Origin: an uncultured Candidatus Saccharibacteria bacterium
GTDB taxonomy: Bacteria; Patescibacteriota; UBA1384; DATEAH01; CAYPSR01
NCBI GenBank assembly: GCA_964448035.1
Contig: CAYUUY010000001.1
Coordinates: forward strand, 1 to 57,164
DNA length: 57,164 bases
Direction of reading: 5' to 3'
Both the position numbers and the translations under genes were made by a program. Shown here piece after piece: positions 8,190-32,594 of this stretch (its first letter is position 1; the number at the start of each line of letters is the position of its first letter). Under the pieces are notes generated by a model. It was not told where the DNA came from, searched no databases, and saw nothing but the letters and a program-made list of their open reading frames with translations.

Positions 8190-8780
8190 TTGAATTTCAA
8201 GCAAGGCAGAATGATATATTTAGAAATGAAAACTAAAACTTGTACAAAATGCAAAATACCATTGCCTGTAACTAATTTTACTAATCATATTCAAAATAAA
8301 GATAGTTTAGATTGTTGGTGTAAGATTTGTAAAAACGGTCACATGGAAGAATATCGTCAAAAATATCCTTGGAGAAGAACATTAGATTCAATAAAGCAAA
8401 GATGTAACAATTCAAACAACAAACGGTATAAATACTATGGTGGGCGTGGTATTAAGTGTCTTATTACGGCAAAAGAATTAAAGAAATTGTGGAACCGAGA
8501 TAAAGCATATTTGATGGATAAGCCAAGTATTGATCGAGAAGAAAACGACGGACATTATGAGTACAGTAATTGTCGGTTTATTGAGAAAGGTGAAAACTCA
8601 GCTAAAGATAAAAGAAAATCAGTCCTTCAATATGATTTAAAAGGAAGATTTATTAAGGAATGGATAAGTCAATCTGAAGCACACAGATATTTAAAAATAG
8701 ATATTTCAAGTATATCACAGTGTTGTTCTGGCAAACGCAAAACGGCAGGTGGTTTTATTTGGGTAATACAAAATCAATAA
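8190..8780 (+). mobile_element. Free-standing homing endonuclease-like gene (degenerate HNH 'IDR' type with NUMOD/IENR-like DNA-binding tail)
   Basis: N-terminal 'KTKTCTKCK' zinc finger, 'RCNNSNNKRYKYYGGRGIKC', 'IDREENDGHYEYSNCRFIEKGENSAK', C-terminal 'VLQYDLKGRFIKEWISQSEAHRYL...SGKRKTAGGFIW'. These patterns recur in phage homing endonucleases. Confidence 0.55.
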
Positions 8781-15016: not shown

Positions 15017-16129
15017 GTGATGATAAAGTTATTGAAAGCAAGACTAATAAATTTTCAAAAACATTCTGATTTAACAGTAGATTTTAATGATGATGTTACT
15101 ATTTTTACTGGATTGACGGATGCCGGAAAAAGTGTAATTAGACGTGCAATCGATTGGACAATTTTCTGTTCTGGTATTAAGGAAAATGATTTACGTAAAG
15201 AAGGAACAAAACAAACATCTGTTGTTTTATCATTTAACAACGGTGTTGAAGTCGAAAAAGTAAAAAGCAATTCAATAAATAGATACATTCTTAGAAAACC
15301 AAATGAAGATGAGCAAGTATTTGATAATTTTGGAAAAGATACACCACAAGCAATAAAAGACGCAATTGGAATGTCACAAATCGACATTGGAAGTGAATCC
15401 CTTAATTTAAACATATCAGAACAACTGGTTCTCCCATTTCTGCTTGACAAAACCCCATCCTTTCGATCAAAACTATTCAATAAAATAACTGGCAATGAGT
15501 TGTTAGATTCTCTATTTAAAAAATGCAACAAAGAAAGTCTGCGTATTAGTAGAGAGTATAAAGACGTGGAAGAGGTTCTTGTTAAACAGGAAAACGATGT
15601 TGTTAAATTTTCTGAACAATACAACCATGACAAAAAAATATTAGATTCAATTAAAAATAAGTATGCTATTTTAAAAGAAAAATCAAAAAAACTAGAAGAA
15701 CTAAAAAGATTATCTTCATTAATATCCGAAAACGAATTAGCATTAAAGCAAGTTGAGAAAAGACTATCATCAATAGTAATGATAGATGATCAAACCATTT
15801 CCGATCTACGTAAAAAAGCCGAGAAACACAGTAAGTTAGTAGAAATAAGCAAGAAGCTATCAGAAATCAACAGTATGTTACAAAAGATAGAGTCATCTAA
15901 AATAAATATACCAGAAGTAGATTTTCAGGAATTATATAATAAAAATGAATTGTTTATTAAATTAAACAAGATTAGCACAGAAATGAAAAATTTACAAAAT
16001 CAGGACTCAAAAAATGATAAATCTATTGATGAATCTTTAAAAATGCTATATAATAATCAAGAAGAATTAGATGAAATATGGAAAAAATTGGACAATGTTT
16101 GTCCATTATGCAAAATGAAAAAAGGATAA
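15017..16129 (+). CDS. Rad50/SbcC-like ATPase, N-terminal half (Walker A + coiled coil + zinc hook)
   Basis: 'FTGLTDAGKSV' Walker A near the N-terminus, long heptad-rich region, 'CPLC' hook 5 residues from the C-terminus. GTG 15017 / ATG 15020 after GGAG RBS. Confidence 0.75.
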   Translation: MMIKLLKARLINFQKHSDLTVDFNDDVTIFTGLTDAGKSVIRRAIDWTIFCSGIKENDLRKEGTKQTSVVLSFNNGVEVEKVKSNSINRYILRKPNEDEQVFDNFGKDTPQAIKDAIGMSQIDIGSESLNLNISEQLVLPFLLDKTPSFRSKLFNKITGNELLDSLFKKCNKESLRISREYKDVEEVLVKQENDVVKFSEQYNHDKKILDSIKNKYAILKEKSKKLEELKRLSSLISENELALKQVEKRLSSIVMIDDQTISDLRKKAEKHSKLVEISKKLSEINSMLQKIESSKINIPEVDFQELYNKNELFIKLNKISTEMKNLQNQDSKNDKSIDESLKMLYNNQEELDEIWKKLDNVCPLCKMKKG

Positions 16130-16286: not shown

Positions 16287-17219
16287 ATGAAATTTGTTTA
16301 TTTTTCAGATTCGCATATTGCTGGCAAAAATAGTGTCAATAGACTTGGTGATTATTTTTCAGATTGTATGGCCAAACTAGATGAATGCATTACTATCTAT
16401 AAAAAAGAAAAATGTTCGTTTATGATTATAGGCGGCGATATTTTTAATAGTAATACAGTTAGCAATTCTGTAGTAGATGAATTCTTAGATAGAATAGAAA
16501 AAAACAATATAAATGTAAAGGTCATATATGGGAATCACGATCTCGTAAATTGTAATTTGGAAATGTCAAAATCAACATCTTTGGCCCATATGATGCGAAG
16601 AAGTAAAAACATTACTCTTTTAGATGAATATGAAGATAATACCTGTTTTATTAAGGGCATTAATTATAAGCATAATATTGAAGAAGATTTTTGTATTTCT
16701 GGTTTAAACTGTAAAGAAACTGATAAATTTAAAATAATAATTCCTCATGCTTTTATTTCTTTAAAAGAATTTCCATTTGCAACACATATTGTGGCATCTA
16801 AACTGAAAACTAACGCTGATGTGGTATTGTGTTCCCATTTTCATCATGATTGGGGAATTGAAACAGTAAATAACGTCAAATTTGTCAATCTAGGGGCCTT
16901 TGGTCGCTTATCCATAGCAGAACATGGTCATATGCCTAAAATCGCACTGGTGGACACTCAGACACGATTAATCGATATAATCCAGCTATCATCTGCCAAG
17001 AAAGGCAGTGAAATCTTTGATCTGAGTAAATACAATGAAAAGAAAGCAGAAAAGAAGGATATTTCCGCTTTTATTGAGGCCCTAAATAGTGTTGAGTGGC
17101 AGGACTTATCAACAAGAGATCAAATTATTAAAGCCGGTAAGGATAATAATATTGAACAACCAGTTATTGACTATTTAATAAACCAATTGGATAAATTAAG
17201 GATGAAAGATAATGAGTAA
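16287..17219 (+). CDS. Mre11/SbcD-like metallophosphoesterase nuclease
   Basis: Motifs 'YFSDSHIAG', 'GGDIFN', 'GNHD', 'IIPHAF', 'CSHFHHD'; adjacent to Rad50-like genes. Confidence 0.75.
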   Translation: MKFVYFSDSHIAGKNSVNRLGDYFSDCMAKLDECITIYKKEKCSFMIIGGDIFNSNTVSNSVVDEFLDRIEKNNINVKVIYGNHDLVNCNLEMSKSTSLAHMMRRSKNITLLDEYEDNTCFIKGINYKHNIEEDFCISGLNCKETDKFKIIIPHAFISLKEFPFATHIVASKLKTNADVVLCSHFHHDWGIETVNNVKFVNLGAFGRLSIAEHGHMPKIALVDTQTRLIDIIQLSSAKKGSEIFDLSKYNEKKAEKKDISAFIEALNSVEWQDLSTRDQIIKAGKDNNIEQPVIDYLINQLDKLRMKDNE

Positions 17220-19379: not shown

Positions 19380-19517
19380 ATGGTCGATTGTAACGACTGT
19401 AAACATCTAGATACTGAAAGATGCGGTGATTGTTCAGTTAGTTATGACATGCAATGCTCTTGTCATATAAATTCCCCATGCAGTTTTTGTATAAGTTGTA
19501 AATTTGAGGAAAAATAA
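19380..19517 (+). CDS. small Cys-rich protein (45 aa, 10 Cys)
   Basis: 'CNDC...CGDC...CSC...CSFCISC'; TAATG coupling to the Rad50 C-half. Confidence 0.4.
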   Translation: MVDCNDCKHLDTERCGDCSVSYDMQCSCHINSPCSFCISCKFEEK

Positions 19518-20119
19518 TGAATATTAAAGAATTAGAAAATAAAATAGAATCTTTTACATCTGAAGTGGATAGATTGAAGGGTAAACTATCTACTCTTGAG
19601 GATCAGTTTGTTGAATCACAAGAACGATTTGATAATTTAAAAATTGAAAAAGAATTAAATAGTAAAGCAGTTGAAGTTCTTACATTAGTACAGGATTCAA
19701 CAAAAACATTAATTATTAATATGTTTGAATCGCTGGTAACACACGCTTTGCAATTTATCCATCAGTCAGACGAATACAAGTTTGAATTGGATTTTGGCAG
19801 AAGAGGAAATTTACCAGAATTATCATTTAACATTTTAACACCAGGTATGCAAGAACCACACGATATTATGACCACAAGAGGCGGCGGGACTTGTGACACA
19901 ACATCGTTAGCATTAAGAGAAGTTTTATTAGAAGTATCAAAGACAAATGGGTTTTTGTTTCTCGACGAGCCATTCAAACATTTAGATAATGACGAAACCG
20001 TAATGAAGGGTATGGAATTTATTAAAGAAATACAGAAAAAAACGGGCAGACAGATTATGATAATAACCCATAAAACAATAATCGCTGACAACGAGGAAGG
20101 TGTTGTATGGATCAAGTAA
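19517..20119 (+). CDS. Rad50/SbcC-like ATPase, C-terminal half (signature, Walker B, H-loop)
   Basis: Short coiled coil, then 'RGGGTCDTTSLALR' (signature-like), 'FLFLDEPFKHLD' (Walker B/D-loop), 'IMIITHK' (H-loop). Confidence 0.75.
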   Translation: MNIKELENKIESFTSEVDRLKGKLSTLEDQFVESQERFDNLKIEKELNSKAVEVLTLVQDSTKTLIINMFESLVTHALQFIHQSDEYKFELDFGRRGNLPELSFNILTPGMQEPHDIMTTRGGGTCDTTSLALREVLLEVSKTNGFLFLDEPFKHLDNDETVMKGMEFIKEIQKKTGRQIMIITHKTIIADNEEGVVWIK

Positions 20120-20889
20120 AAAAATGTGTTATATTGGGTGCAGGTCAATCGATGCAAGAAGGAATTGAAAAAGGTCTTTGGACTAAACTAGATAATATTG
20201 CTACGTTTGGTATTAACGAAGCTTTTCAATTTTTTAATCCCACATTGATAACATTTGTGGATTGGACATTTTATCGTGATAGATTTGATAAAATAAAAAA
20301 TTATCCATTAGTTATTGGAATTAATAATCCCGCCATAGGGTTTTGGTATACAGACAGAAAACGAGGAAGTTATCAAAAATGTGCTAAAGGTGACACTCTA
20401 GTAATGGTTAATGGAAGTTCGGAATATTTTGGAAAGGAATCATTAAAAAAAGGATGTTATACTGGAGTATTAGCTGGACTATTTACAACAACACTAGCAA
20501 TGGCATTAGGATATAACGAAATTTATTTGCTTGGCTGTGACATGGGCCAGAAAGATGGTAAAACCCATTTTTATCAAAATAACAATAAAGGAATTGGCAA
20601 TTTTACAGACGAAAATAATGTTGAAAGAACAGGAGTAGGATTTAACGTATGTGGACATTTTTCTACTGGAGTTTATAATAATACAGATGCATATATTCAA
20701 GATTTTTGGAAACCATATTTGACAGATACTGATGTTAAAATATATAATGTGTCAATGAATTCACGCATTGATACATTTGAAAAAATAACTTATGATGAGT
20801 TTTTTAAAAATATAGAAAACGAGGAAAAACTTGATCAAAATAAAGTTAGAGAACAAATTCGTATCAAAATTAAAACTGATTCCGATTAA
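20107..20889 (+). CDS. DUF115/MptE-like (Maf / GT42 sialyltransferase-like) glycosyltransferase, intein-free paralog
   Basis: 'CVILGAGQSM' (GNGPSL-like N-terminus), 'YTGVLAGLFTTTLAMALGYNEIYLLGCDMG' resembling the '...TSG...ALGYKEIYLSGIDFY' region I recall from Campylobacter Cst-II. Confidence 0.5.
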   Translation: MDQVKKCVILGAGQSMQEGIEKGLWTKLDNIATFGINEAFQFFNPTLITFVDWTFYRDRFDKIKNYPLVIGINNPAIGFWYTDRKRGSYQKCAKGDTLVMVNGSSEYFGKESLKKGCYTGVLAGLFTTTLAMALGYNEIYLLGCDMGQKDGKTHFYQNNNKGIGNFTDENNVERTGVGFNVCGHFSTGVYNNTDAYIQDFWKPYLTDTDVKIYNVSMNSRIDTFEKITYDEFFKNIENEEKLDQNKVREQIRIKIKTDSD

Positions 20890-21029
20890 AACATATATTG
20901 AAAAATTTCTAGGGATTATAAATGTTATGGTTGTTATCTTTAATATAATATTATTGTTTCTTTTCTTATGTGGGATCAGTCTCAAAATTGGCATTCATAA
21001 ATATTGGTATAAACTGTTTGGATATAAAA

Positions 21030-22991
21030 ATGAGTAAAATAAAAAATATTTTAAATGATGGTTTTTATGATGTATTTGGTGAATTAATAAATCAAAATTT
21101 CATAGATATTTATATAACTAAATGCATGAATCAATTAAAAGGAATAAAAGAACAAACAAGTTCACAAGAAATTCCTATTACATCATACCCAATTGCAAAA
21201 TATGAATTGTTACAAAACAAAAAAGGACTATATGTAAAAACAGTACCCGTTAATTATAATCCATGTTTTGTTGTAGCCGGTGGCCCTTCCTTAAAAAACT
21301 TTAATTTTGATTTATTAAAACATAAAACTACTTTTGTATCAAATAAATCCATTTTTGATGTTCCAAATACTAACTATTTTGTTACGACGGATTATACTTT
21401 TTTGAGTTATCTTAAAAAGAATAATCTATATAATAAATGGCGAAGTAATAAAGCAGAAAAATATTTTGTTGCTAACTGTATATCGGATACAATACAAAAC
21501 ATAAATGGACAAATAACTGATACAAAATATAATCTAACTTACGATTTACAGGATTTTGATAAGATAGTTATTTGTAAATCGGCAAAAAACGTGGGTTTTG
21601 ATTTTGACAATTTTAATAGTGGATATAATTCGGGTTTTTGTTTTGATGATAAAACGCAGATTCTTACTAAAAGAGGATGGAAATATTTTAAAAATTTAAA
21701 ACATAATGACACTGTATTAAGTTTAGACCCAAAAACCCAAATAGCGGATTATTATCCTATTTCAGACATTCAATGTTTTGATTATAGTGGTGATTTATAT
21801 TGTAAATCTGTATCAAGAGGACATCAAACCGATTTTGCAGTTACACCAGATCATTCTATGTTTGTTTATAGTAGAGATAGAAAAAAATATGAATTTAAAC
21901 CAGCAAAATTTTTTAATGACCACCCTAAAAATGACCATTACACATTAAAAACCGATTTTAAATGGGTAGGAAAACACGCTGATTATATTAAAATAAACGG
22001 AAAACAATATACTGGTTGGGGAAATTATAAAAAAATTCAATACAAAATAAAATCCGAAATATTTATGCAGTTTTTAGGATGGTATTTAAGCGATGGTAAC
22101 AATTATTGTGGTATAAATAGTTGGGGAGAAACATACAGAATTACTATTTATCAAAGTAAAAAATCTAAACACCTTGATGAAATTAGGTCTATTCTGTCAC
22201 AATTACCATTCAAATATGTAGAATCAGAAAATAAAAATATGCTTTCTTTTCGTATAACAAACAATGTGCTAGGAAAATATATAAAAAAACATTGTGGAGG
22301 ATCTGGTGTGTCCAAAAAAATACCCAATTATCTGAAATTTTTAACACCAGATCTAATTCATTTATTTTTAATGGCATATATGAATGGTGATGGAACTAAA
22401 GTGAAAACTGGCTATACTGTTTCCACGATAAGTAAAAAAATAGGATATGGAATGCTGGAATTGTTTTTAAAAGCAGGATACAAAAGAGTAAATTGCACAC
22501 GTGTAAAAAATAAAAAACACAGAGTTTTTCCTGGTGGGTTTAAAGCAAATTTAAAAAAACATAACTATGTAGTGCACGCAACAAATAATACTACAGAAGA
22601 ACGATTGATATTTAATCCAGATACTATATCTTATAGTGGTAAGGTATACGATGTAACCGTTGAACCACACCATACCATTTTTGTTAAGAGAAACGGTATG
22701 CCATTTTGGTCAGGAAATTGTTCATTTCAAATGGCATTAATAATGGGTTATAATCCAATTTATTTATTGGGATTTGATATGAATTGTGATCAAAAAGATA
22801 CCCATTATCATGACGGATACGGAAAAAGCAAAGAAAAAATGGATCAAAATCTTCTAAATTATTCAACACATTTTAAACATATATTACAAAAATTAAGAAT
22901 AGATAGACCAAATTTGCAAATTATTAGTTGCTCAAAAACAAGCATTTTAAATAAAATAATAGATTATAAAGATATAAAGGATGTTTTATGA
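21030..22991 (+). CDS. DUF115/GT42-like glycosyltransferase precursor containing one intein
   Basis: 'FVVAGGPSLKN' N-terminal motif. Exteins rejoin as 'GYNSGF|CSFQMALIMGYNPIYLLGFDMN', paralogous to 20107-20889. Start taken at 'MSKIKNIL' (track start 20970). Confidence 0.6.
   Translation: MSKIKNILNDGFYDVFGELINQNFIDIYITKCMNQLKGIKEQTSSQEIPITSYPIAKYELLQNKKGLYVKTVPVNYNPCFVVAGGPSLKNFNFDLLKHKTTFVSNKSIFDVPNTNYFVTTDYTFLSYLKKNNLYNKWRSNKAEKYFVANCISDTIQNINGQITDTKYNLTYDLQDFDKIVICKSAKNVGFDFDNFNSGYNSGFCFDDKTQILTKRGWKYFKNLKHNDTVLSLDPKTQIADYYPISDIQCFDYSGDLYCKSVSRGHQTDFAVTPDHSMFVYSRDRKKYEFKPAKFFNDHPKNDHYTLKTDFKWVGKHADYIKINGKQYTGWGNYKKIQYKIKSEIFMQFLGWYLSDGNNYCGINSWGETYRITIYQSKKSKHLDEIRSILSQLPFKYVESENKNMLSFRITNNVLGKYIKKHCGGSGVSKKIPNYLKFLTPDLIHLFLMAYMNGDGTKVKTGYTVSTISKKIGYGMLELFLKAGYKRVNCTRVKNKKHRVFPGGFKANLKKHNYVVHATNNTTEERLIFNPDTISYSGKVYDVTVEPHHTIFVKRNGMPFWSGNCSFQMALIMGYNPIYLLGFDMNCDQKDTHYHDGYGKSKEKMDQNLLNYSTHFKHILQKLRIDRPNLQIISCSKTSILNKIIDYKDIKDVL
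21639..22718 (+). mobile_element. Intein (360 aa) with LAGLIDADG homing endonuclease in a DUF115/GT42-like gene
   Basis: 'CFDDKTQILTKRGW' N-terminus, 'TPDH' block B, 'FLGWYLSDGN' and 'FLMAYMNGDGT' LAGLIDADG motifs, 'VYDVTVEPHHTIFVKRNGMPFWSGN' then +1 Cys. Confidence 0.8.
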
Positions 22992-23128
22992 AAGTTAAAG
23001 ATTTGATTTGGGAATTACAACAAATACATAATCAAGAAAAAGAAGTGGCTTTTGGTAATTCTAACGCTAATGAGTCTTTTATACATAGTGTTGTTGAAAC
23101 AGAATTTAGGGTTTATATTAAAGATTAA
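22988..23128 (+). CDS. small hypothetical protein (46 aa)
   Basis: ATGA coupling with the upstream gene; translated by hand. Confidence 0.35.
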   Translation: MKVKDLIWELQQIHNQEKEVAFGNSNANESFIHSVVETEFRVYIKD

Positions 23129-23149
23129 TTGTAAGGAAAGGAACAAATA

Positions 23150-23830
23150 ATGAGTGAAAAAATTTCGATTTTAATTCCTGTTTATAACAGGGAAGGTTTT
23201 ATTGAACGAGCAATAAATAGTAGTTTAAATCAAACATATAAGAATTTACAAATTCTTGTTTATGATGACGGATCGAATGATAAAACCAGAGAAATTGTGA
23301 TTGATATAGCACAAAAGGATAATCGTGTAAAATTGTTTTGTAATACACCAACAAAAAACGAAGGAGTAGGAAAGGCCCGAAATTTGTTATTAAAATTTTG
23401 CGATACAAAGTATGCTATATGGCAAGATAGTGACGACATTTCTGCACCAACACGAATCGAAGAACAATTAAAAGAGATGACTGAAGACAAAATGGTTTAT
23501 TGTACGTGGGAAAATTTTAAGACTAAAGTGCCAGGAACAACAAGAGGGTTTGCAACTCTTATGTTTCCAGTAAACAAGGGTGTTCTTTTTCCTGAAGATA
23601 TGAAGTTTGGCGGGGAAGATCAATGTTGGAGAGATGAAATGGAAAAGATTTATCCTACATCCGATGTAAATCAAGTTCTTTATTCAATAGATTTTCACGG
23701 AAACCGAATAGGAACGTGGAAACGAAAGATTGACAAAAATTGGAACGGAAAATACGATTTGAATGATATTAAAGACTTGTCATATGAAGATGCAATAAAA
23801 AAATATATGAACGAATATCAAACCAAATAA
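23150..23830 (+). CDS. Family 2 glycosyltransferase (GT-A)
   Basis: 'ISILIPVYNREGFIERAINSSLNQTY', 'YDDGSNDKT', 'QDSDD' DxD motif. Confidence 0.8.
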   Translation: MSEKISILIPVYNREGFIERAINSSLNQTYKNLQILVYDDGSNDKTREIVIDIAQKDNRVKLFCNTPTKNEGVGKARNLLLKFCDTKYAIWQDSDDISAPTRIEEQLKEMTEDKMVYCTWENFKTKVPGTTRGFATLMFPVNKGVLFPEDMKFGGEDQCWRDEMEKIYPTSDVNQVLYSIDFHGNRIGTWKRKIDKNWNGKYDLNDIKDLSYEDAIKKYMNEYQTK

Positions 23831-23839
23831 AGGAAATAT

Positions 23840-24463
23840 ATGACTCCAGAACTTTTGCTATTCTATCAAAAACTTGTTAATAAACAAAATTTCTCCCTTG
23901 TCCGTTTTGGTGATGGAGAACATAACATTATGGACAATGTTGCATGTAATCGAAAAGGTTTTGATTTTGATCCTAAAGATGCTAGAGATCAAGAATTTAA
24001 AAGAGATTTACGTGAAGCATTTAAATTTAAAAGTCCACGATATTATAAAGGGCTGGATTACACGAATATAGAAGAAAACATAGTTTATGCTTGTCTTTTT
24101 GTTAATAATAGTTATTTAGATTTTTTGGACAATTTCTCACCTCTTTTTGAAAACTGTATTTTTGTTGGTAATGAATTAGGAATGGATTGGCAATTGCCAT
24201 TTAAACCACAAAAATATATTAGAATTAAAGAAAACGCTTGGAAGGACTATAATTCTAATTTATTAAATCTTTTTTTATCTAATTATTTAACCAATAAGAA
24301 TAATGAAATTGTATTAGTTGCAGGTGGCCCCATGAGTAATGTTTTAATTTATAAATTATATAAAAATAATCCTAATAATACTTATATAAATGTTGGAAGT
24401 GTATTTGATCCTCACATTTTTGGTTTTCTTACTCGCAAATATCAAGAAAGGTTATGTACATGA
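23840..24463 (+). CDS. GT-D-like (DUF1792-type) glycosyltransferase
   Basis: N-terminal 'SLVRFGDGEHNIM' resembles the DUF1792 'RxGDGE' signature; located between GT2 and HAD genes. Confidence 0.45.
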   Translation: MTPELLLFYQKLVNKQNFSLVRFGDGEHNIMDNVACNRKGFDFDPKDARDQEFKRDLREAFKFKSPRYYKGLDYTNIEENIVYACLFVNNSYLDFLDNFSPLFENCIFVGNELGMDWQLPFKPQKYIRIKENAWKDYNSNLLNLFLSNYLTNKNNEIVLVAGGPMSNVLIYKLYKNNPNNTYINVGSVFDPHIFGFLTRKYQERLCT

Positions 24464-24843
24464 AATACAAAGGATATTTAGCATTTGATTTTGATGGTGT
24501 AATAGCATCATATAATAGACCTTTTATTATAGATAAATTGGGTAAACCACAAAAATCTGTAATAGAAACAATTCGTTATTTTTACGACCAAGGATATTAT
24601 ATACTAATTTTTACTGGACGATTAGAAACTGTCAAATTTACAAAATGGTTAGAAAAAAATAATGTACCTTATCATGGTGTAAATGTACAACCAAGCAATA
24701 TGGCTGGAACAAATAATGATAAACCTTTTTATAATGTAATTATAGACGATAAGGCTGTTAATTTTCATTGGGAAAACAACCATAAATCTAAAGATGAATT
24801 AATTAGTGAAATTGAAAGGAAGTTAGAATGGGCGAAGGAATAA
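24454..24843 (+). CDS. HAD-superfamily phosphatase-like protein
   Basis: Motif I 'AFDFDGVI', 'IFTGR', terminal 'IIDDKA'. Confidence 0.55.
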   Translation: MYMKYKGYLAFDFDGVIASYNRPFIIDKLGKPQKSVIETIRYFYDQGYYILIFTGRLETVKFTKWLEKNNVPYHGVNVQPSNMAGTNNDKPFYNVIIDDKAVNFHWENNHKSKDELISEIERKLEWAKE

Positions 24844-25529
24844 ATGATATCGTTGTGAGAGCATGTTTATCAACTAATTTTGGAGATAATCTTAACTCAG
24901 AGTTAGTTCGATTAATTTCTGGACAAACACCAAAATTGGTAAATAACAGATTTGGCAATCTAGAAAAAGAAACTATCTATATGGCAATAGGCAGTGTTCT
25001 TGGATGGGCTACTGAAGAAACTGAAGTCTGGGGAGCAGGATTTATTTCTGATTCAGATTTTGTTACAGATATACCAACGCCAAAAAGAATCCATGCCGTT
25101 AGAGGGCCAGAAACAAGAAATATTTTAATAACTAAAGGAATCAGATGTCCTGAAATATTTGGTGACCCCGCATTATTGATGCCCAGATTTTATAATCCAA
25201 AATTAGAAAAGAAATATAAAATATCAGTAATTCCACATGCAATTGATAGAGTATTAATTCCAGAATTAACCAAATCATTTCCTAATGCTCATTTTATTGA
25301 TGTAACACAAGATGTATATAAATTTATAGACGAGGTTATTAAATCAGAATATATTATTTCATCTGCCCTTCATGGGTGTATTACTGCGTATGCATATGGT
25401 GTTCCTTATGAACATCAAAAATTTTCAGACAAGGTCTTGGGAAATGGGTTCAAATTCGAAGATTTTGAAAAAAGCAAACAATATATTGATTTAGATAAAT
25501 TACTAAAAGTCTGTCCATTTGTTCAATAA
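24828..25529 (+). CDS. Polysaccharide pyruvyl transferase-like protein
   Basis: 'NFGDNLN', 'HAVRGPETR', 'GDPALL', 'ISSALHGCITAYAYGVP' match the PS_pyruv_trans pattern as I recall it. Confidence 0.55.
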   Translation: MGEGINDIVVRACLSTNFGDNLNSELVRLISGQTPKLVNNRFGNLEKETIYMAIGSVLGWATEETEVWGAGFISDSDFVTDIPTPKRIHAVRGPETRNILITKGIRCPEIFGDPALLMPRFYNPKLEKKYKISVIPHAIDRVLIPELTKSFPNAHFIDVTQDVYKFIDEVIKSEYIISSALHGCITAYAYGVPYEHQKFSDKVLGNGFKFEDFEKSKQYIDLDKLLKVCPFVQ

Positions 25530-25777
25530 TAACATTTGTTATTGTTGAAGCCGGAGACACAACTGGAAATTTTCTTAGAAACATAAATTTAAATTATATA
25601 ATAAACCAGAACTTGATTTATAACCTCTACAGGATATGTGTCTGTTTAGAAAGGAAAACAATGATAAAATATTTAAAAATATTATATGAATTTATTATAA
25701 ATTTTGATAATAATTGTTTTGGGCCATCTAAGAAAAGAAAAATTGATAAAGCTGCAAAAAATCCATTTATATAAAAA

Positions 25778-25807
25778 TTGACAAAAACAAAATAAATATG
25801 GTATAAT
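25778..25807 (+). promoter_or_regulatory. Sigma70-like promoter, copy 3 (TTGACA-N18-TATAAT, extended -10 TGG)
   Basis: ttgaca 25778-25783, tataat 25802-25807, in a 574-nt gap with no long ORF (small ORF 25661-25774 is listed under rejected); followed by GGAGG RBS and ATG 25830. Confidence 0.55.
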
Positions 25808-25829
25808 TATAATAAATGGAGGATTTATT

Positions 25830-25961
25830 ATGACAAAATATAAATCGGTATTAAGAATAGTTTGGAGTATAAAACAGGCTTCTTTATTTTTTAAAATTAA
25901 TTTTACATTGATTGTTTTTATAAAAACAATAAAGAAATGGATAAATAATGACTATCAATGA
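25830..25961 (+). CDS. small hypothetical protein (43 aa, partly hydrophobic)
   Basis: Strong GGAGG RBS 25817-25821; translated by hand. Confidence 0.4.
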   Translation: MTKYKSVLRIVWSIKQASLFFKINFTLIVFIKTIKKWINNDYQ

Positions 25962-26106
25962 AAGAGTAAAAATCGACAACACAATTTATTATGTTATTGC
26001 CCAAACAGATAACGAAGTTTGTGTATTACAAAATTTTGAATTTACAGACGGTATAACAAGACAACTCAAAATATGGACGCATAATTATGAAAGGGTAACT
26101 GAATGA
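25948..26106 (+). CDS. small hypothetical protein (52 aa)
   Basis: ATGA coupling to the 26103 gene; translated by hand. Confidence 0.4.
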   Translation: MTINERVKIDNTIYYVIAQTDNEVCVLQNFEFTDGITRQLKIWTHNYERVTE

Positions 26107-26567
26107 ACAGAAAAACACTAGAAAGAATATCTGTATTAGAAACTAGAATTTTCGAATTAGAGAATAATTTAAAGAAATATTTTATTCCTAATCAAGAGTT
26201 TAAGGAATTAAAAAATCGGTTAATTAATATTGTAAATGATATGAATTTTGATTATCCTTTTGAATTAGATGAGGGCAGTACATGTTTCAATTTTTATAAA
26301 TTAATAGACATGAAAGAAACAGTCATTGAGCATGGTAATGTGTATATCTTATTGACAGGTAGTCGTGTAGATAATGACTTAGCTTTATGGGATTTAAAAC
26401 AATTAAATCCAAATTATTATGATATCAATAATCTATTACTTTCTAATAATATAAAAAGATTATACGATAATAGAATAAACGCAGATGAGGCTTATTTGAT
26501 AGCATTAAATGATATAAACCAAACCGAAATACCAATTGAAAACATTGCAAAATTTGTTAGGAAATAA
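26103..26567 (+). CDS. hypothetical protein
   Basis: 154-aa ORF. Confidence 0.55.
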   Translation: MNRKTLERISVLETRIFELENNLKKYFIPNQEFKELKNRLINIVNDMNFDYPFELDEGSTCFNFYKLIDMKETVIEHGNVYILLTGSRVDNDLALWDLKQLNPNYYDINNLLLSNNIKRLYDNRINADEAYLIALNDINQTEIPIENIAKFVRK

Positions 26568-26568
26568 A

Positions 26569-28860
26569 ATGAAAATATGTCTTATTTATCTTCCACACCC
26601 TTATTTAGTTGATCCAGAGGCCCAAGCCCCTTTGGGTCTACTTTATATTGCTAGTTCATTAGAACAAACCAAACAACATGATGTTATTTTAAAAAACTAT
26701 TCTTCTTATACTGAAGAAGAGGCAATCAATGATTTACCGGAGTGTGATGTTTATGGTATAACAGTAACAGCACTAGAATTATTGCAGTCTAATGATTTTG
26801 CAAAGAAAATAAAAAATAAATATCCTAATAGTAAAGTCATTCTTGGTGGGCCTGGAACATTTAGCGATCAATATGTCGATTGGATAGTTATTGATTCTAT
26901 ATTAAAGGGTGAAGGAGAAATTACCATACATACTATCTTAGACGATATTTTGTTAGGTAATGAACAAAAAATTTATAAAGGAGAAGTTGTTAAAAATCTA
27001 GACATAATTCCTTTTCCAGCTAGGCATTTGTTAAAAGATAAACAAGGCGGTCATATTTTTGCAAATCATACAACCTTCGATAAAACATTTAGTATGGAAT
27101 ATAAAGGAAAAGGAACCACATCAATATTAACAAGTAGGGGATGCGGATGGGGTTGCAGTTTTTGTTCAAGTCCTGGAATGAACCAAAAATTACGATTTCG
27201 TAGTCCTCAAAATGTATATAATGAAATAAAACATATTGTAGATACATATAAAATAAAACAGTTTCGTTTTTCAGATGAAATGTTTACGGCTAATAAAAAA
27301 CATGTATTGGAAATTTGCGAATTAATAAAACCATTGGGTATTGTGTGGAGAATTTCGGCAAGGGTCAAACCACTATCAATGGAAATATTAAAGGCAATGA
27401 AAAAGGCGGGATGTGTTGAGATAAGTTTTGGTGTGGAATCGTTTGATGATGATGTATTGAAAGGACTAAATAAGGGGACAACAGCAGAGGATAATGCCAA
27501 AGCGTTACAGATGGCAAAGGACGCAGGATTAATGGTTCGTGTTTTATTCATGATCAGGACTCCTTGGCAAACCATTGATACTGTTTATAAGAATATTGAT
27601 TGGCTAAAAAAGGTTCCATATGATACAATTGCGTGTACATCATTCGTTCCTTTGCCTGGATGTTTTGATACAAAAACAGAAATTTTAACCAAATTGGGAT
27701 GGAAAAAATATAACGAAATTGGTTATAATGATTATTTTTTAACAAGAAACATAAATAATGAAATTGAATATCAAAAACCGTTGAAAATAACTAAAGAAAA
27801 ATATTCTGGAGAAATGATAAAACAAAAAAGTAAATGTATAGACTATTTTGTTACACCAAATCACAAATTTTTAATCAACACATATTATAAAAACGATTTT
27901 CAGTTTAGATATGCCAAAGATATAAAAATAAACAATAGAATTCCAAATATTGGAAAATGGATAGGTATAACACCAGAACCAATAATTTATATAGGAAAAC
28001 ATACCTTTAATATGAAAGATTGGGTAGCTTTTTTAGGTATTTTTATATCTGAAGGATGTACATTTAAATGTAAAAATTATATATATAGGGTGCAAATAAC
28101 ACAATCTAAAAAGGATAATGTTAGAAAAATAAAAAATCTTTTAAATGACATGGGATTAATATATTCTTATAACAACGATAAAGATTTTGTTATAAATTCA
28201 AAAGATTTATATTTAAAATTAAAACCGTTGGGAAAAAGTTGGGAAAAATATATTCCCAATGATATAAAACAGTTGAATTCGGATTATTTAAAAATATTAT
28301 ATAAATGGTTAATAATGGGTGATGGACATTCAAGAACAAAATATTATGACCAAACATATTATTCAACATCAATTCGTTTGGTAAATGATATATTAGAAAT
28401 TTTATTAAAAATAGGTAAATGTGGTAATTATTCTGTACGAGAACCAAAAGAATGTTATATTAGAGGAAGAAAAATATCATCTAAAAGATTGCTATATACC
28501 ATACAAGAAAGAAAAAGCAAATTTACAAAACTTCACACTCAAAACCATAAACCTCAAAAAGTTCATTATGATAACACTGTTTGGTGTGTTTCTGTTCCTA
28601 ATAAGGTTATATATGTAAGAAGAAATGGTAAATGTTATTTTTCTGGAAATAGTGATATTTGGAAAAAACCAGATGATTACAATATTGAAATTTTAAATCG
28701 TAATATCCAAGACTACAATTTTTATTTTTATGGGCGAGATGGAAAAAATGATTTAAAGGATATTATTAAAATAAAGGATCGTTCACTTGAAGAATTAAAT
28801 GCAGAATCTACTTATTTTCGAAACTGGATAGAACAGCAAGGTAAAACCAATAAAGGATAA
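26569..28860 (+). CDS. B12-binding (class B) radical SAM enzyme precursor containing one intein
   Basis: N-terminal cobalamin-binding-like domain ('ICLIYLPHP...APLGLLYIASSL', 'GGPG'), radical SAM cluster 'SRGCGWGCSFC' (CxxxCxxC). Exteins rejoin as 'FVPLPG|SDIW'. Start at 'MKICLIY' (track start 26536). Confidence 0.8.
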   Translation: MKICLIYLPHPYLVDPEAQAPLGLLYIASSLEQTKQHDVILKNYSSYTEEEAINDLPECDVYGITVTALELLQSNDFAKKIKNKYPNSKVILGGPGTFSDQYVDWIVIDSILKGEGEITIHTILDDILLGNEQKIYKGEVVKNLDIIPFPARHLLKDKQGGHIFANHTTFDKTFSMEYKGKGTTSILTSRGCGWGCSFCSSPGMNQKLRFRSPQNVYNEIKHIVDTYKIKQFRFSDEMFTANKKHVLEICELIKPLGIVWRISARVKPLSMEILKAMKKAGCVEISFGVESFDDDVLKGLNKGTTAEDNAKALQMAKDAGLMVRVLFMIRTPWQTIDTVYKNIDWLKKVPYDTIACTSFVPLPGCFDTKTEILTKLGWKKYNEIGYNDYFLTRNINNEIEYQKPLKITKEKYSGEMIKQKSKCIDYFVTPNHKFLINTYYKNDFQFRYAKDIKINNRIPNIGKWIGITPEPIIYIGKHTFNMKDWVAFLGIFISEGCTFKCKNYIYRVQITQSKKDNVRKIKNLLNDMGLIYSYNNDKDFVINSKDLYLKLKPLGKSWEKYIPNDIKQLNSDYLKILYKWLIMGDGHSRTKYYDQTYYSTSIRLVNDILEILLKIGKCGNYSVREPKECYIRGRKISSKRLLYTIQERKSKFTKLHTQNHKPQKVHYDNTVWCVSVPNKVIYVRRNGKCYFSGNSDIWKKPDDYNIEILNRNIQDYNFYFYGRDGKNDLKDIIKIKDRSLEELNAESTYFRNWIEQQGKTNKG
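27661..28650 (+). mobile_element. Intein (330 aa) with LAGLIDADG homing endonuclease in a radical SAM gene
   Basis: 'CFDTKTEILTKLGW', 'TPNH', 'FLGIFISEGC' and 'WLIMGDGHS', 'VWCVSVPNKVIYVRRNGKCYFSGN' then +1 Ser. Confidence 0.8.
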
Positions 28861-28862
28861 GT

Positions 28863-29168
28863 ATGAACATATTTTGTGATATATATGGAACATTGACCGA
28901 TGATGGAGAACATAGAAATGGTATTCCAAATTTATATAGGATATGTAAAATAAAACAATTATCACTTACTAATACTGTATATTTGTGGAGCGGGAATGGG
29001 CAAACATATGCTGAAGAGTTTCGCATTAAACATGGTTTGCTTCGTTGTACAGCAATAGGAAAACCACATTTAATAATTGATGATAATCCAACTATAAGAC
29101 CAAATTGGGATTCTTTAATTAAAACACCAGATTGTTTAGATAAGGAGCATATAAATGTCAATACTTAA
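28863..29168 (+). CDS. HAD-like small protein with degenerate motif I
   Basis: 'FCDIYGTLT' (DxYGT instead of DxDGT), 'GKP', 'IIDDN'. Confidence 0.4.
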   Translation: MNIFCDIYGTLTDDGEHRNGIPNLYRICKIKQLSLTNTVYLWSGNGQTYAEEFRIKHGLLRCTAIGKPHLIIDDNPTIRPNWDSLIKTPDCLDKEHINVNT

Positions 29169-29391
29169 TAACACACAGTTGGATCGTGATAGAGTTAATT
29201 GTTTTAAATGTTATTGGGTCGTGCATCCACACTATGACGATTTTGATAATTTATCTGTAATGTGTTCTTGTCCTTATATGGAAATGATAAAGGATGAATA
29301 TGATTATTATAATCAAAATCATAATTGCAGATACTTTTATAAACAAAAAACAATTTGTCAAAAAATTATTAAATTTTTGAGGGGTTTTTAA
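29155..29391 (+). CDS. Cys/His-rich hypothetical protein
   Basis: 78-aa ORF, 'CFKC...CSC...C'. Confidence 0.5.
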   Translation: MSILNNTQLDRDRVNCFKCYWVVHPHYDDFDNLSVMCSCPYMEMIKDEYDYYNQNHNCRYFYKQKTICQKIIKFLRGF

Positions 29392-29392
29392 T

Positions 29393-30088
29393 ATGAAATT
29401 TATACTTAACGAAAATCAGCATGATAGGGATGTTGAATTAGCAAAATTATTAAATTTACCATTAGAAAAAATACAAAAATTACCAATGTGCACACCCGAT
29501 TCAATTAGAATTTCTAATGGTGATAAACCAGAAAATTTAGAAGACTTGTATCATGACTATGAACACTTAAATTTTCCAGCTTATTTACGCACATTAATGA
29601 TGACCAGTGCAACAAGAAGACACCCTGCTCTTTTTGAATTATTAAGAGAAACAAAAAATAAGATTTGTCTTGATTTTGGATCAGGAGTAGGAACGCACGC
29701 TATTGCTTTACATGAAAATAGTAATATTGTTCATTTACTTGATGTTCCAGGAAAATTATTTGATTTTGCTAAAAAAAGACTAACAAATATAGGTTGCGAA
29801 TTTTTTATATGGTTTAATAACAATATGGCTTTACCAGAAGATTATTATGATGTTGTTATTTGTTCTGACTGCTTGGAACATGTCCAATCACCAATCAAAG
29901 AATTGAAACGTATTCATAAATCAATGAAAGTAGGTGGTATTCTTCACTTGCTTGTTTCAACAATGAGAAAACCTAGTAGTGGTCACTTTGATAGTTCAAT
30001 TGATGAATGGATAAAGTATGGTAAGAAATTTATGATTGACAATTTCTATGAAATTAAACCAACAATTTATCAGAAAAAGGAAAAATAA
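29393..30088 (+). CDS. Class I SAM-dependent methyltransferase
   Basis: Motif I 'CLDFGSGVGTHA', 'LLDV', 'VVICSDCLEHV', 'GGILHL'. Confidence 0.75.
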   Translation: MKFILNENQHDRDVELAKLLNLPLEKIQKLPMCTPDSIRISNGDKPENLEDLYHDYEHLNFPAYLRTLMMTSATRRHPALFELLRETKNKICLDFGSGVGTHAIALHENSNIVHLLDVPGKLFDFAKKRLTNIGCEFFIWFNNNMALPEDYYDVVICSDCLEHVQSPIKELKRIHKSMKVGGILHLLVSTMRKPSSGHFDSSIDEWIKYGKKFMIDNFYEIKPTIYQKKEK

Positions 30089-30157
30089 TGGAAGATAAAA
30101 CAATTTTAAATATAAATCCTAAAGATATTACTATTTTATCAGGTATTTCTGGAAGTA

Positions 30158-30643
30158 ATGGCAAAAGAACTTTATGAAGCAGGAACCACATTTATTTTGG
30201 TTACTGCATATAGCGAGCAAGAAAACGAACGATTACTAAATGTTAGAAAAAATGTAACAGATACAATTGATAAAAAATATATAAATAATGTATCTTTTTA
30301 TATTAGAAAATCATACAAATTAGATTCAAGACTTAATATGAATGGTAAAAGTGGGGCCTGTTATGCACCATTAACAGAATTATTAATTTGCCCAGATGGA
30401 AAATTAAGACTATGTTGTATGGATATCGATGAAAATGAAGCCTTTGGTGATCTTCATAAAGAAAATTTTGAAGATATTATTATAAATAATCATGAAAGAC
30501 TTACTAAACTTCGAGAATCTCTTATTAAATCAGAAAGAACATTAGAACTATGTAAAAAGTGCAATTTTGTAAATAGAATGAAAGGTTTTTATATGAGTAA
30601 GGGTGATTTTAGAAATAATGCATCAAAATTAAAAAGGAAATAA
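30158..30643 (+). CDS. SPASM/twitch-like Cys-rich domain protein without a radical SAM core
   Basis: 'GACYAPLTELLICPDGKLRLCCMD...FGDLHKENFEDII...LELCKKCNF' resembles the C-terminal auxiliary-cluster domain of radical SAM/SPASM proteins; no CxxxCxxC present. Confidence 0.4.
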   Translation: MAKELYEAGTTFILVTAYSEQENERLLNVRKNVTDTIDKKYINNVSFYIRKSYKLDSRLNMNGKSGACYAPLTELLICPDGKLRLCCMDIDENEAFGDLHKENFEDIIINNHERLTKLRESLIKSERTLELCKKCNFVNRMKGFYMSKGDFRNNASKLKRK

Positions 30644-30852
30644 TGATACACGCACTTGTAATAGCCGGTTCATATCAACAATTCAAATATTGGCTATGGG
30701 AAAATCGACAATGTGAAAAAGACTATTTTTATGTAAATGATTGGGAGAGCTGTCTTGGATTACGAAATTTACCAATTTTATTGGTAGAACAGTATGGTAA
30801 AAGTCCAGTCAATCCTTATATATTATCGGAAATGATACAAGATGATTGCTAA
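30643..30852 (+). CDS. hypothetical protein
   Basis: 69-aa ORF, TAATG coupling. Confidence 0.45.
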
Positions 30853-31336
30853 AAAACTCAAATTAACAATGGGAGCCAATTGTCAACTTTCACCACAGGC
30901 CCACATTGGATATCACGAAACTGGAAAAGGATCAATAACTTTAGGGAATAAGGTCATTATTCGTCATGGTTGCGTTATCAGAACTTGTTCTGGTGACATA
31001 AAAATAGCAAATAACACGGTTATTAACTATAACTGTATTATTCATGGCCTTGGTGGCGTTACAATAGGGTCTGACGTGCTTTTTTCACCAAATGTGCAAA
31101 TGTATGCTCAAAATCATGGAACGGCCCGTGACAGGCTAATTAGAAGCCAAAGCAACGAATCTAAAGGTATTAAGATAGGAAATGATGTTTGGATAGGAGC
31201 AGGAGTCATTATTTTAGATGGAGTAACAATAGAAACCGGTGCAATTATTGGTGCTGGGTCAATTGTTAATAAAAATGTGCCTTCTTATGAAATTTGGGCA
31301 GGTAATCCAGCAAAAAAGATTGGAGAACGTAAATGA
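30842..31336 (+). CDS. Left-handed beta-helix (hexapeptide repeat) acetyltransferase
   Basis: Hexapeptide repeats '[31 protein letters not shown]' and terminal '[10 protein letters not shown]'. Confidence 0.8.
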
Positions 31337-31722
31337 ATTCGGTATTAGATAAACAATTATGTGATAAATATCCTAAAATTTTTGTTCAACGCAATTTACA
31401 ACCAGATCAAACAGCAATGTGTTGGGGATTTGAATGTGGTGATGGTTGGTATTGGCTCATAGATTCACTTTGTAATCAGTTACAATGGGATATAGATCAT
31501 AACCGTTATCCACAGATAGAAGCAGTACAAGTTAAAGAAAAGTTTGGTGGTTTACGTTTTTATGTTTCTGGTTGTAATGAAAACCAATCTGGAAGTATAG
31601 AATTTGCCGAATTATTATCATCTACTATTTGTGAAAAATGCGGTCAACCAGGAGCCACACAGACAGAAACAGGATGGATACAAACTTTGTGTGATAAATG
31701 TAAAGATGAAGGAAACCAATGA
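31333..31722 (+). CDS. hypothetical protein (conserved phage '[10 protein letters not shown]' type)
   Basis: '[12 protein letters not shown]' and 'CEKCG...CDKC' recur in uncharacterised phage proteins. Confidence 0.55.
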
Positions 31723-32594
31723 AAAGAATCGCCTTTATAATACCATTTTTCTACAAATGGGGCAACTATAGTAATGTCCGTGCTAACTATGAATTTTTAC
31801 AAAAGCATGGTTATATTGTAGATATTTATAGCAAAAAAGATAATAAACCTATCAATTTTGATAATTATGACCTAGTTATGATGCATGGGTCTGGGGCTTT
31901 TTTAACAGATGAACAATTTAAAAATTGTAAAATACCTATTATTGCACTCGGCTGGTCTGATCCCAACATGTTTAATGAAGTTCATTTTAATCAAGGCACT
32001 ATTTATTGTACTAATGATTTAACGCTATCCCATGAATTAAAGGGTAAACCTATATATTTTTACAATACAGCATGTGATAAAAGACATCATATTGACTTAA
32101 AACTAAAAAAGGAAACCGATATTTTAGTATATGGAGTAGGAAAACATCCTTTTGTTCCTAATAGAAATAAAGTAGTCAATAATCTAAGAAGAGACGGTTT
32201 TTCTGTTAAAGTGTTTGGCCGCAATTGGGATTCTCATAAAGACACATATGATTTTATTGAAGGTGAAGGGTTATCTTGTGAAATTTGTAAAGCACATATT
32301 CTTCTTGATGTGACAAACAAAGAAACGGCCTGGGGACATAGGGTTTTTGAATCTAGTGCAAGAGGAACACCAGTTTTAACAATAGACAGAGAAGATACAC
32401 GTTCTATGTTTGAACCAGATTCGGAAATTGTTCTTTATAAAAATTATAATGATATGAAAGAAAAATTAACTTTTTATTTAAAGTCAAAAGAAATACTTCG
32501 TGAAATTGGTATTAATGCTCAAAAAAGATGTTACAAAGACCATGATATTAGTATAAAAATAAAAGAATTGATTAAAATAATAGGGGATTTTTAA
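31719..32594 (+). CDS. GT1 / CgeB-like glycosyltransferase
   Basis: C-terminal 'RVFESSARGTPVLT' (E-x7-E-region-like GT-B motif); Rossmann-like N-terminus 'KRIAFIIPF'. Confidence 0.5.
   Translation: MKRIAFIIPFFYKWGNYSNVRANYEFLQKHGYIVDIYSKKDNKPINFDNYDLVMMHGSGAFLTDEQFKNCKIPIIALGWSDPNMFNEVHFNQGTIYCTNDLTLSHELKGKPIYFYNTACDKRHHIDLKLKKETDILVYGVGKHPFVPNRNKVVNNLRRDGFSVKVFGRNWDSHKDTYDFIEGEGLSCEICKAHILLDVTNKETAWGHRVFESSARGTPVLTIDREDTRSMFEPDSEIVLYKNYNDMKEKLTFYLKSKEILREIGINAQKRCYKDHDISIKIKELIKIIGDF

Follow-up and report, generated by a model that had tools for sequence, protein, structure and literature searches.

A predicted mobile class-1 intein in the N-S-G-F motif of a phage sialyltransferase-like enzyme

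We analysed a 57,164-nt stretch of DNA (hereafter the window) from contig CAYUUY010000001.1 of an uncultured Candidatus Saccharibacteria assembly, in which the gene at 21030-22991 on the plus strand had been predicted, from the letters alone, to carry an intein inside a DUF115/GT42-like glycosyltransferase. The window is part of a tailed phage with a GC content of 29%, encoding a tape measure protein, RNA ligase, Mre11/SbcC-like nucleases, DNA ligase and DNA polymerase B. Our analysis confirmed that the insert is a bona fide class-1 intein with a LAGLIDADG homing-endonuclease domain. The fuller reading, to which we give a probability of about 0.88, is that of a mobile class-1 intein with an intact LAGLIDADG endonuclease, located in frame directly after the N-S-G-F motif of a phage sialyltransferase-like enzyme of the DUF115/GT42 superfamily. 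The parts of the gene and of the intein are as follows.

21030-22991, plus strand: precursor gene from the list of open reading frames (ORFs), 653 amino acids (aa), 76.0 kDa; sialyltransferase-like (DUF115/GT42-like) enzyme with the intein inside.
21030-21638, plus strand: N-extein, 203 aa, with the GGPSL loop at aa 84-88 and the conserved NSGYNSGF motif at its end.
21639-22718, plus strand: intein, precursor residues 204-563, 360 aa, 42.0 kDa; HINT domain split by a double-motif LAGLIDADG homing endonuclease.
22719-22991, plus strand: C-extein, 90 aa plus stop; +1 Cys, then SFQMALIMGYNPIYLLGFDM and an invariant T-H-Y-H.
21639-21677, plus strand: block A, CFDDKTQILTKRG; Cys1 is the first nucleophile, and C1, T6, I8, T10, G13 and W14 are invariant in seven family members.
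21834-21866, plus strand: block B, FAVTPDHSMFV; TPDH at aa 69-72 supplies Thr69 and His72 of TxxH, and V68, T69, P70 and H72 are invariant in the seven members.
22062-22100, plus strand: first LAGLIDADG motif, FMQFLGWYLSDGN; FLGWYLSDGN at aa 145-154, with the conserved D/E before an invariant Gly; aligned to PI-PkoII and I-DmoI.
22362-22397, plus strand: second LAGLIDADG motif, LFLMAYMNGDGT; FLMAYMNGDGT at aa 243-253, with Asp251 and Gly252 invariant; aligned to PI-PkoII and I-DmoI.
22638-22685, plus strand: block F, GKVYDVTVEPHHTIFV; aligned to the Mja KlbA intein.
22698-22718, plus strand: block G, MPFWSGN, with the terminal Asn360; S358 and G359 are invariant in the family.

The functional start of the precursor is the ATG at 21030, and not the GTG at 20970 of the longer plus-strand ORF (20970-22991), because alignments of homologues begin at MSKIKNIL. 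Translation of 21639-22718 yields 360 aa, from CFDDKTQILT to MPFWSGN, and the next codon encodes Cys, which makes the predicted coordinates exact. Cys1 is encoded by nt 21639-21641 and the +1 Cys by nt 22719-22721. The full intein signature named in the original prediction (Cys1, TPDH, two LAGLIDADG motifs, a FWSGN end and a +1 Cys) is in place. The insert had also been placed about 20 residues upstream of an LLGxDM motif, and the distance measured from the +1 Cys to the Asp of LLGFDM is indeed 20 residues. Without the insert, the spliced product is a protein of 293 aa and 34 kDa.

A search of 5.8 billion proteins with this 293-aa query returned 31 relatives, giving an alignment of 32 sequences with the query. 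None of the 31 (209-298 aa) carries the insert, and the closest match the spliced product with E-values down to 8e-113, at about 60% identity over 99-100% coverage. The alignment is ungapped across NSGYNSGF/CSFQ (the slash marks the junction, here and below). Excision thus restores an ungapped alignment to 31 homologues, which is far beyond chance and shows that the flanks are contiguous with intein-less relatives; a broken alignment would have refuted the prediction. The exteins retain all 34 columns that are invariant across the 32 sequences, without frameshift or stop. G85, S87, N200 and G202 are invariant, and G84, L88, S201 and F203 are conserved in at least 90% of the sequences; homologues that lack the intein have Cys or Ser at +1. 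The insertion point therefore falls in the best-conserved motif of the sialyltransferase-like family, N-S-G-F, as is typical of inteins. In a hidden Markov model (HMM) alignment, N200-S201-G202-F203/C204 pairs with T131-S132-G133-V134/Y135 of Cst-II, reproducing the by-eye placement of the insert beside the Cst-II 'TSG' segment. Thr131 and Ser132 of Cst-II reportedly touch CMP-Neu5Ac (CMP, cytidine monophosphate), a contact for which our literature search gave no confirmation.

The intein itself belongs to a recognisable family. Ten proteins share the whole 360-aa intein; the hosts of these relatives are terminase large subunits, PF22769 proteins (which, on our own reading of their sequence, are probably dCTP deaminases), a metallophosphoesterase, a prohead protease and GTP cyclohydrolase I. 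All relatives carry Cys1, TPxH, two LAGLIDADG motifs, block F and an SG(N/Q) ending followed by Cys or Ser, the terminal residue being Asn in all except one, which has Gln. A family profile was built from seven sequences including the window intein; its HMM scores the insert at 2.7e-144, a value that is partly circular since the insert is one of the seven. Against the PDB, the profile matched PI-PkoII (4.8e-16), VMA inteins (1.4e-13), the AceL NrdHF intein (1.8e-9) and I-DmoI (3e-5), whereas the insert alone gave only weak matches to the Mja KlbA intein and a V-ATPase intein.

The predicted structure pointed the same way. The AlphaFold model of the intein has a predicted local distance difference test (pLDDT) score of 87 and a predicted template modelling score (pTM) of 0.87. 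Its predicted fold matches TliVMA (5e-17), PhoVMA, PI-PkoII, PI-SceI and PI-PfuI, with E-values of 5e-17 to 1e-13 and template modelling (TM) scores of 0.5-0.65, and its central domain matches I-DmoI (1e-6, TMt 0.6-0.68). The predicted intein is thus borne out by the family profile against the PDB, by LAGLIDADG_3 in the relatives and by the fold. The Pfam models performed less evenly. LAGLIDADG_3 was matched by six of the seven family members (up to 7.5e-10) and Intein_splicing by four of the seven, while the window intein alone gave no match to LAGLIDADG_3 and stayed below threshold for Intein_splicing. Because single-sequence Pfam scores fall below the curated cut-offs, the identifications of both intein and host rest on profile, PHROG and structure evidence.

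For the host, the spliced extein matched PHROG 4603, annotated by name only as 'alpha-2,3-sialyltransferase', at 2.1e-17, with residues 82-283 on positions 1-164 of the 178-position profile. The PDB matches of the extein family profile were solely GT42 sialyltransferases plus Maf: Cst-I (2p2v) and Cst-II (1ro7), with E-values near 3.5e-4 and matches of about 210 residues, and Maf (5mu5), with an E-value of 0.005. The AlphaFold model of the extein (pLDDT 88) had Cst-II as its top Foldseek match (2e-4, probability 1.0); next came a sialyltransferase from Pasteurella and GT29 sialyltransferases from animals (TM 0.3-0.44 overall), and the top nine fold matches were all sialyltransferases. Precomputed domain assignments in the 31 homologues include PF01973 in 16 and PF06002 in one (P0031); the intein host itself gave no PF06002 (CST-I) match in the Pfam scan. 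Among the members of PF01973 are the Maf transferases, which add nonulosonic acid to flagellin and have a Cst-II-like central domain (PMC11339370). Together with a sub-threshold PF01973 match, the PHROG, PDB-profile and fold results support the placement of the host in the DUF115 (PF01973)/GT42 sialyltransferase-like superfamily, as had been predicted. We infer that the enzyme transfers a sugar; GT42 and Maf enzymes suggest, by analogy, that a CMP-activated nonulosonic acid may serve as donor.

The best explanation of these features is an intein that would be competent for both splicing and homing. By standard class-1 chemistry, a 76-kDa precursor would be translated, Cys1 would attack the Phe203-Cys204 peptide bond in an N-S acyl shift, and the N-extein would pass to the +1 Cys by trans-thioesterification. 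Cyclisation of Asn360 would then free the 42-kDa intein, and an S-N shift would yield the 34-kDa, 293-aa enzyme with its NSGYNSGF-CSFQ motif restored. During co-infection, the endonuclease of the freed intein could cleave alleles that lack the intein where the two extein sequences join, around AATTCGGGTTTT/TGTTCATTTCAA, and repair of the break would copy the intein into them. The candidate target is the 48-nt joined extein site AATAGTGGATATAATTCGGGTTTTTGTTCATTTCAAATGGCATTAATA.

Several observations weigh against this reading. In the intein, Gly359 stands in place of the penultimate His, which normally assists Asn cyclisation, and the single-sequence Intein_splicing score is sub-threshold (23.4 vs 35.8 bits in Pfam). 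The GC content of the intein (0.289) is like that of the window (0.293) and gives no signal of foreign composition, as would suit an element long resident in the genome better than a newcomer. Neither the homologue search nor the best 80 of 387 IMG/VR relatives contained a near-identical intein-free allele; the closest is only 62% identical, which gives no evidence of recent homing. For the host, the extein resembles Cst-II only modestly in structure (TM 0.39-0.44), the single-sequence match to MptE-like PF01973 is sub-threshold (24.7 vs 34.6 bits) and no residue equivalent to His188 was identified in the extein, His188 being the catalytic base of Cst-II (PMC4202792). The invariant T231-H232-Y-H234 is a candidate for its equivalent. 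Splicing, DNA cleavage and transferase activity are likewise functions that we infer.

The missing His and the lack of a near-identical intein-free allele, along with a second family member next door, would suit a decayed, non-splicing intein in a dead gene copy whose function is covered by the paralogue at 20107-20889. We regard this as quite improbable. Every other catalytic position is intact and invariant across the intein family, Gly359 is itself invariant there, and the exteins keep their 34 invariant columns at 60% identity to intact homologues, free of frameshift or stop. A penultimate His is typical but not obligatory, and inteins without it splice, according to Chen, Benner and Perler (2000) as cited in PMC4031507. 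The class-1 RDF intein of mycobacteriophage Bethlehem gp51 has a penultimate Gly and splices completely in vitro, and its change from G to H slows the reaction (Kelley et al. 2016, PMC5050341), so that a penultimate Gly is compatible with fast splicing. Block G of the form (W/I/F)SGN also occurs in relatives inside a terminase large subunit and a prohead protease, and in the DNA polymerase B of the window phage itself. Since phage viability requires splicing of such genes, the SGN ending must be splicing-compatible. Tandem paralogues are, moreover, the normal state in intein-free phages, which makes the neighbour a partner and not a replacement.

Doubt about the host enzyme is a separate matter. 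The intein could be real and its host no glycosyltransferase, namely another DUF115-type enzyme such as an MptE-like pyrophosphokinase or a DNA-acting enzyme, in which case the argument from an atypical host would be weaker. The best Pfam match by name is indeed the sub-threshold MptE-like PF01973, TM scores to sialyltransferases are only about 0.4, the catalytic His is not mapped, and the scanned window proteins included neither a CMP-sugar synthetase nor a nonulosonic-acid synthase. We nevertheless consider such a host unlikely, given the PHROG 4603 match of 2e-17, PDB profile matches confined to GT42 and Maf, nine top folds that are all sialyltransferases, and the fact that PF01973 also covers Maf nonulosonic-acid transferases with their Cst-II-like centre (PMC11339370). 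The gene also lies among GT2, GT-D-like, GT1-like and pyruvyl-transferase genes; the glycan role of the intein host is supported because GT2, GT-D-like, pyruvyl transferase and other glycan genes follow within about 10 kb. As for the insert, the sub-threshold Intein_splicing score might suggest something other than an intein: fusion with a free-standing homing-endonuclease gene, a bacterial intein-like domain or an assembly chimera. This is effectively refuted by the extein alignment, the family profile and the intein fold. The insert is in frame with precise boundaries within an invariant motif, Cys1, the terminal Asn and the +1 Cys are all there, and the predicted HINT-plus-endonuclease structure matches solved inteins at 5e-17; the identical protein occurs in several independent assemblies, and P0032 has a homologous insert at this very site. 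The preferred reading thus remains a mobile, splicing-competent intein in a sialyltransferase-like enzyme.

The original prediction came with the remark that no intein allele was known to be described in this enzyme family. This holds for the literature, where our searches turned up no intein reported from a glycosyltransferase or from the sialyltransferase-like family (the supplementary host lists of the main survey lay outside that search), but not for sequence databases, where relatives exist at the same site (P0032) and three residues upstream (P0116 and P0137). The exact precursor is public as P0042, on at least five contigs from several independent assemblies, and because the protein is identical on these contigs it is not an assembly artefact. 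The NCBI record of P0042 reads 'MAG: hypothetical protein M0R03_13140 [Novosphingobium sp.]'. Novosphingobium genomes are GC-rich; with its 29% GC and its phage structural and replication genes, the P0042 contig is probably phage sequence mis-binned into a Novosphingobium metagenome-assembled genome. In P0032 (570 aa), a much more divergent host, the same site (GYNSGF/C...WSGN/CGLQ) holds an intein 51% identical to that of the window, a recurrence that supports mobility. A representative search gave 7,622 matches, and among the 150 listed, P0116 and P0137 carry inteins three residues upstream (GNN/SGF, +1 Ser) in the other host subfamily; over their full length these two proteins share about 30% identity with the window precursor, and this low identity points to independent or ancient invasions.

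No insert was present in the best 80 of the 387 IMG/VR relatives, and no GenBank phage carried one, the tblastn search with the extein returning distant relatives only (for example the CcrColossus 'sialyltransferase-like' protein, 20% identity). The DNA of the window gave only three short matches to GenBank phages (69-74% identity), all outside the precursor gene. The target motif TG.NSG(F/Y)C..QLA occurs at 56 places in the fetched loci, whose DNA agrees with the joined site of the window in no more than 34 of the 48 positions (the 25 best agree in 28-34). Two sets of apparent carriers were rejected. Loci L006, L008, L009, L010, L016 and L030, whose matches span about 1.3 kb versus about 0.65 kb, had suggested mini-inteins, but on translation each proved to hold a pair of neighbouring paralogues read in different frames. 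P0110 (518 aa), P0146 (418 aa) and P0155 (422 aa), each matched in two stretches, are fusions with extra C-terminal sequence past an uninterrupted NSG.

Intein relatives also occur in other sugar-pathway enzymes. P0192 is a GT4 glycosyltransferase (Glycos_transf_1, 54.5 bits after removal of the intein) and P0202 a sugar nucleotidyltransferase (50.7 bits); further hosts are radical-SAM proteins, PurD, ThyX and methyltransferase-like proteins. In the methyltransferase-like P0190 the intein lies directly after NPPYA, and in the radical-SAM protein P0193 just ahead of the CxxxCxxC cluster. P0210, named 'glycosyltransferase involved in cell wall biosynthesis' by JGI, also carries an intein of this family and has no Pfam match without it. 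In P0190, P0193, P0192, P0210 and P0202 the intein family lies right at recognisable active-site motifs.

Immediately upstream of the precursor gene lies the intein-free gene that the original prediction called a paralogue. It does belong to the same family, but only distantly: BLASTP aligned 38 residues (E 6e-7) and hhalign gave a probability of 93.6% (E 2e-7) at 24% identity over 195 columns. The paralogue matched PHROG 4603 at 1.6e-9 and PF06002 below threshold (20.4 vs 25 bits). Its DNA equals 19 of 42 nt of the joined extein site at the equivalent position, and it is thus unlikely as a second homing target. In intein-free IMG/VR phage contigs (L006, L008, L009, L010 and L030) a tandem pair is found, with the 'GGNNSGFGALML' type followed by the 'TG.NSGFCALQLA' type, and the two sialyltransferase-like paralogues seem to work as a conserved pair. 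In the phage of the window, the pair opens a run of glycan-related genes (20107-32594, plus strand), which is listed here with two further inteins.

20107-20889, plus strand: distant intein-free paralogue, 260 aa; equivalent site TGVLAGL/FTTT.
23150-23830, plus strand: GT2.
23840-24463, plus strand: GT-D-like protein (weak).
24454-24843, plus strand: LNS2-domain protein, possibly HAD-like.
24828-25529, plus strand: polysaccharide pyruvyl transferase.
26536-28860, plus strand: intein-bearing ORF of a B12/radical-SAM enzyme.
27661-28650, plus strand: second intein, 330 aa, in ORF 26536-28860; FVPLPG/CFDTKTEILT...CYFSGN/SDIW.
29393-30088, plus strand: SAM methyltransferase.
30158-30643, plus strand: SPASM protein.
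30842-31336, plus strand: hexapeptide acyltransferase.
31719-32594, plus strand: GT1-like protein.
4841-6034, plus strand: third intein, 398 aa, in ORF 3785-7168; KIFLN/CFSKDTDVL...FNWSGN/SLYG.

Both further inteins belong, broadly, to the family of the glycosyltransferase intein. The second intein lies 5 kb from the glycosyltransferase intein and is 27% identical to it. Its N-extein matches Radical_SAM (2.3e-22) and B12-binding (2.9e-8), making the host a B12-binding radical-SAM enzyme, another host that does not act on nucleic acids. A PHROG 'thymidylate synthase' assignment for this ORF is an artefact, since phrog_85 positions 89-174 match the N-terminal intein region, as they do in the glycosyltransferase intein; an NCBIfam match to the DNA polymerase II large subunit was also set aside, as it falls in intein aa 132-265, its endonuclease region. 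The host of the third intein is a family-B DNA polymerase, in which the intein splits motif B (KxxxNSxYG) and the spliced protein has motif A DYASLYPHI and motif C YGDTDG. This position is a classical one for inteins in polymerase B. Recent spread within the genome was rejected as an origin of the three inteins, which are only 24-30% identical to one another.

A SbcC/Rad50-like ATPase appears to be encoded in two pieces, an N-terminal half at 15017-16129 (plus strand; phrog_16465, phrog_77 positions 294-634) and a C-terminal piece at 19517-20119 (plus strand) with the FLFLDEPF Walker B region (phrog_77 positions 874-932, phrog_15167). Four ORFs lie between them, including a metallophosphoesterase at 16287-17219, and the pieces may stem from one divided gene or belong to two distinct ATPases. 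Mobile elements abound in the window: besides the three inteins, free-standing homing-endonuclease-like genes are found at 8190-8780 (plus strand; NUMOD1/I-HmuI-like) and at 45364-46338 (minus strand; HNH, phrog_8446). The former is preceded by a 164-aa ORF at 7168-7662 whose similarity is confined to the N-terminal third of a D12 adenine methyltransferase (sub-significant, with no single stretch reaching significance); the endonuclease may have interrupted or truncated a gene here.

Inteins are found overwhelmingly in replication, recombination, repair and other nucleic-acid- or ATP-binding proteins in bacteria, archaea and mycobacteriophages (PMC4760082, PMC5050341), and on these surveys the host is as atypical as predicted. 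The sialyltransferase-like gene is a new host and insertion site, apparently undescribed, for a well-understood kind of element. It leaves the understanding of intein mechanism unchanged, adding no new mechanism, and is not unique in sequence databases. It does provide a clean counter-example to the view that phage inteins occur only in nucleic-acid-binding proteins (PMC5050341), and with sialyltransferase-like, B12/radical-SAM, GT4 and nucleotidyltransferase hosts, the host range of inteins in uncultured phages is broader than described. As inteins home to functionally critical, slowly evolving sites, the insertion marks N-S-G-F as probably the active centre in this uncharacterised family of phage enzymes.

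A wider reading, which we put forward tentatively and at slightly less than even odds, is that one LAGLIDADG-bearing, penultimate-Gly intein family has become widespread in uncultured phages, in their auxiliary enzymes of the glycan-pathway and radical-SAM kinds. The cases behind it are the sialyltransferase-like genes (two neighbouring sites), GT4, the sugar nucleotidyltransferase and the B12/radical-SAM enzymes. If true, the textbook bias to replication, repair and nucleic-acid-binding hosts would fail in these phages, and their 'accessory' sugar enzymes would be conserved and important enough to serve as stable homing sites. More speculatively, the Cys1/+1 Cys pair might make maturation of the enzyme redox-conditional during infection. 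With its penultimate Gly and Cys or Ser at +1, this compact and probably fast-splicing family is a possible source of splicing tools and of new endonuclease specificity.

Comparison with known systems places both parts of the precursor. The host shares with Cst-I and Cst-II of Campylobacter jejuni and with PF01973 proteins an N-terminal G-G-x-S-L loop, a (T/N)-S-G segment and L-x-G-x-D about 20 residues on, as far as the profile match to 1ro7 and 2p2v aligns these motifs. It is only about 14-16% identical to Cst-I and Cst-II, has an extra N-terminal helical region of about 75 aa, and its invariant THYH has no obvious counterpart in Cst-II; none of the solved or described GT42/PF01973 members bears an intein. 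P0116 and P0137 share the host superfamily and the motif with the window gene and differ in the site and the +1 residue, whereas P0192 and P0202 carry the same intein family in glycan-pathway enzymes of unrelated fold (GT-B and nucleotidyltransferase). The Bethlehem gp51 RDF intein resembles the window intein in being phage-borne, class-1 and endowed with a penultimate Gly. Like other phage inteins, it occupies the active centre of its host protein (PMC5050341), but the phage hosts in the survey of Kelley et al. all bind nucleic acids (PMC5050341), whereas the window host is glycosyltransferase-like. With the solved inteins TliVMA/PhoVMA (7qsu/7qss/7qst), PI-PkoII (2cw7), PI-SceI and PI-PfuI, the window intein has in common Cys1, the TxxH of block B, block F, the terminal Asn, the +1 nucleophile and a double LAGLIDADG endonuclease inserted in the HINT domain. 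It is just 11-18% identical to them, has Gly and not His at the penultimate position, and resides in a phage sugar-transferase-like enzyme instead of a V-ATPase or DNA polymerase.

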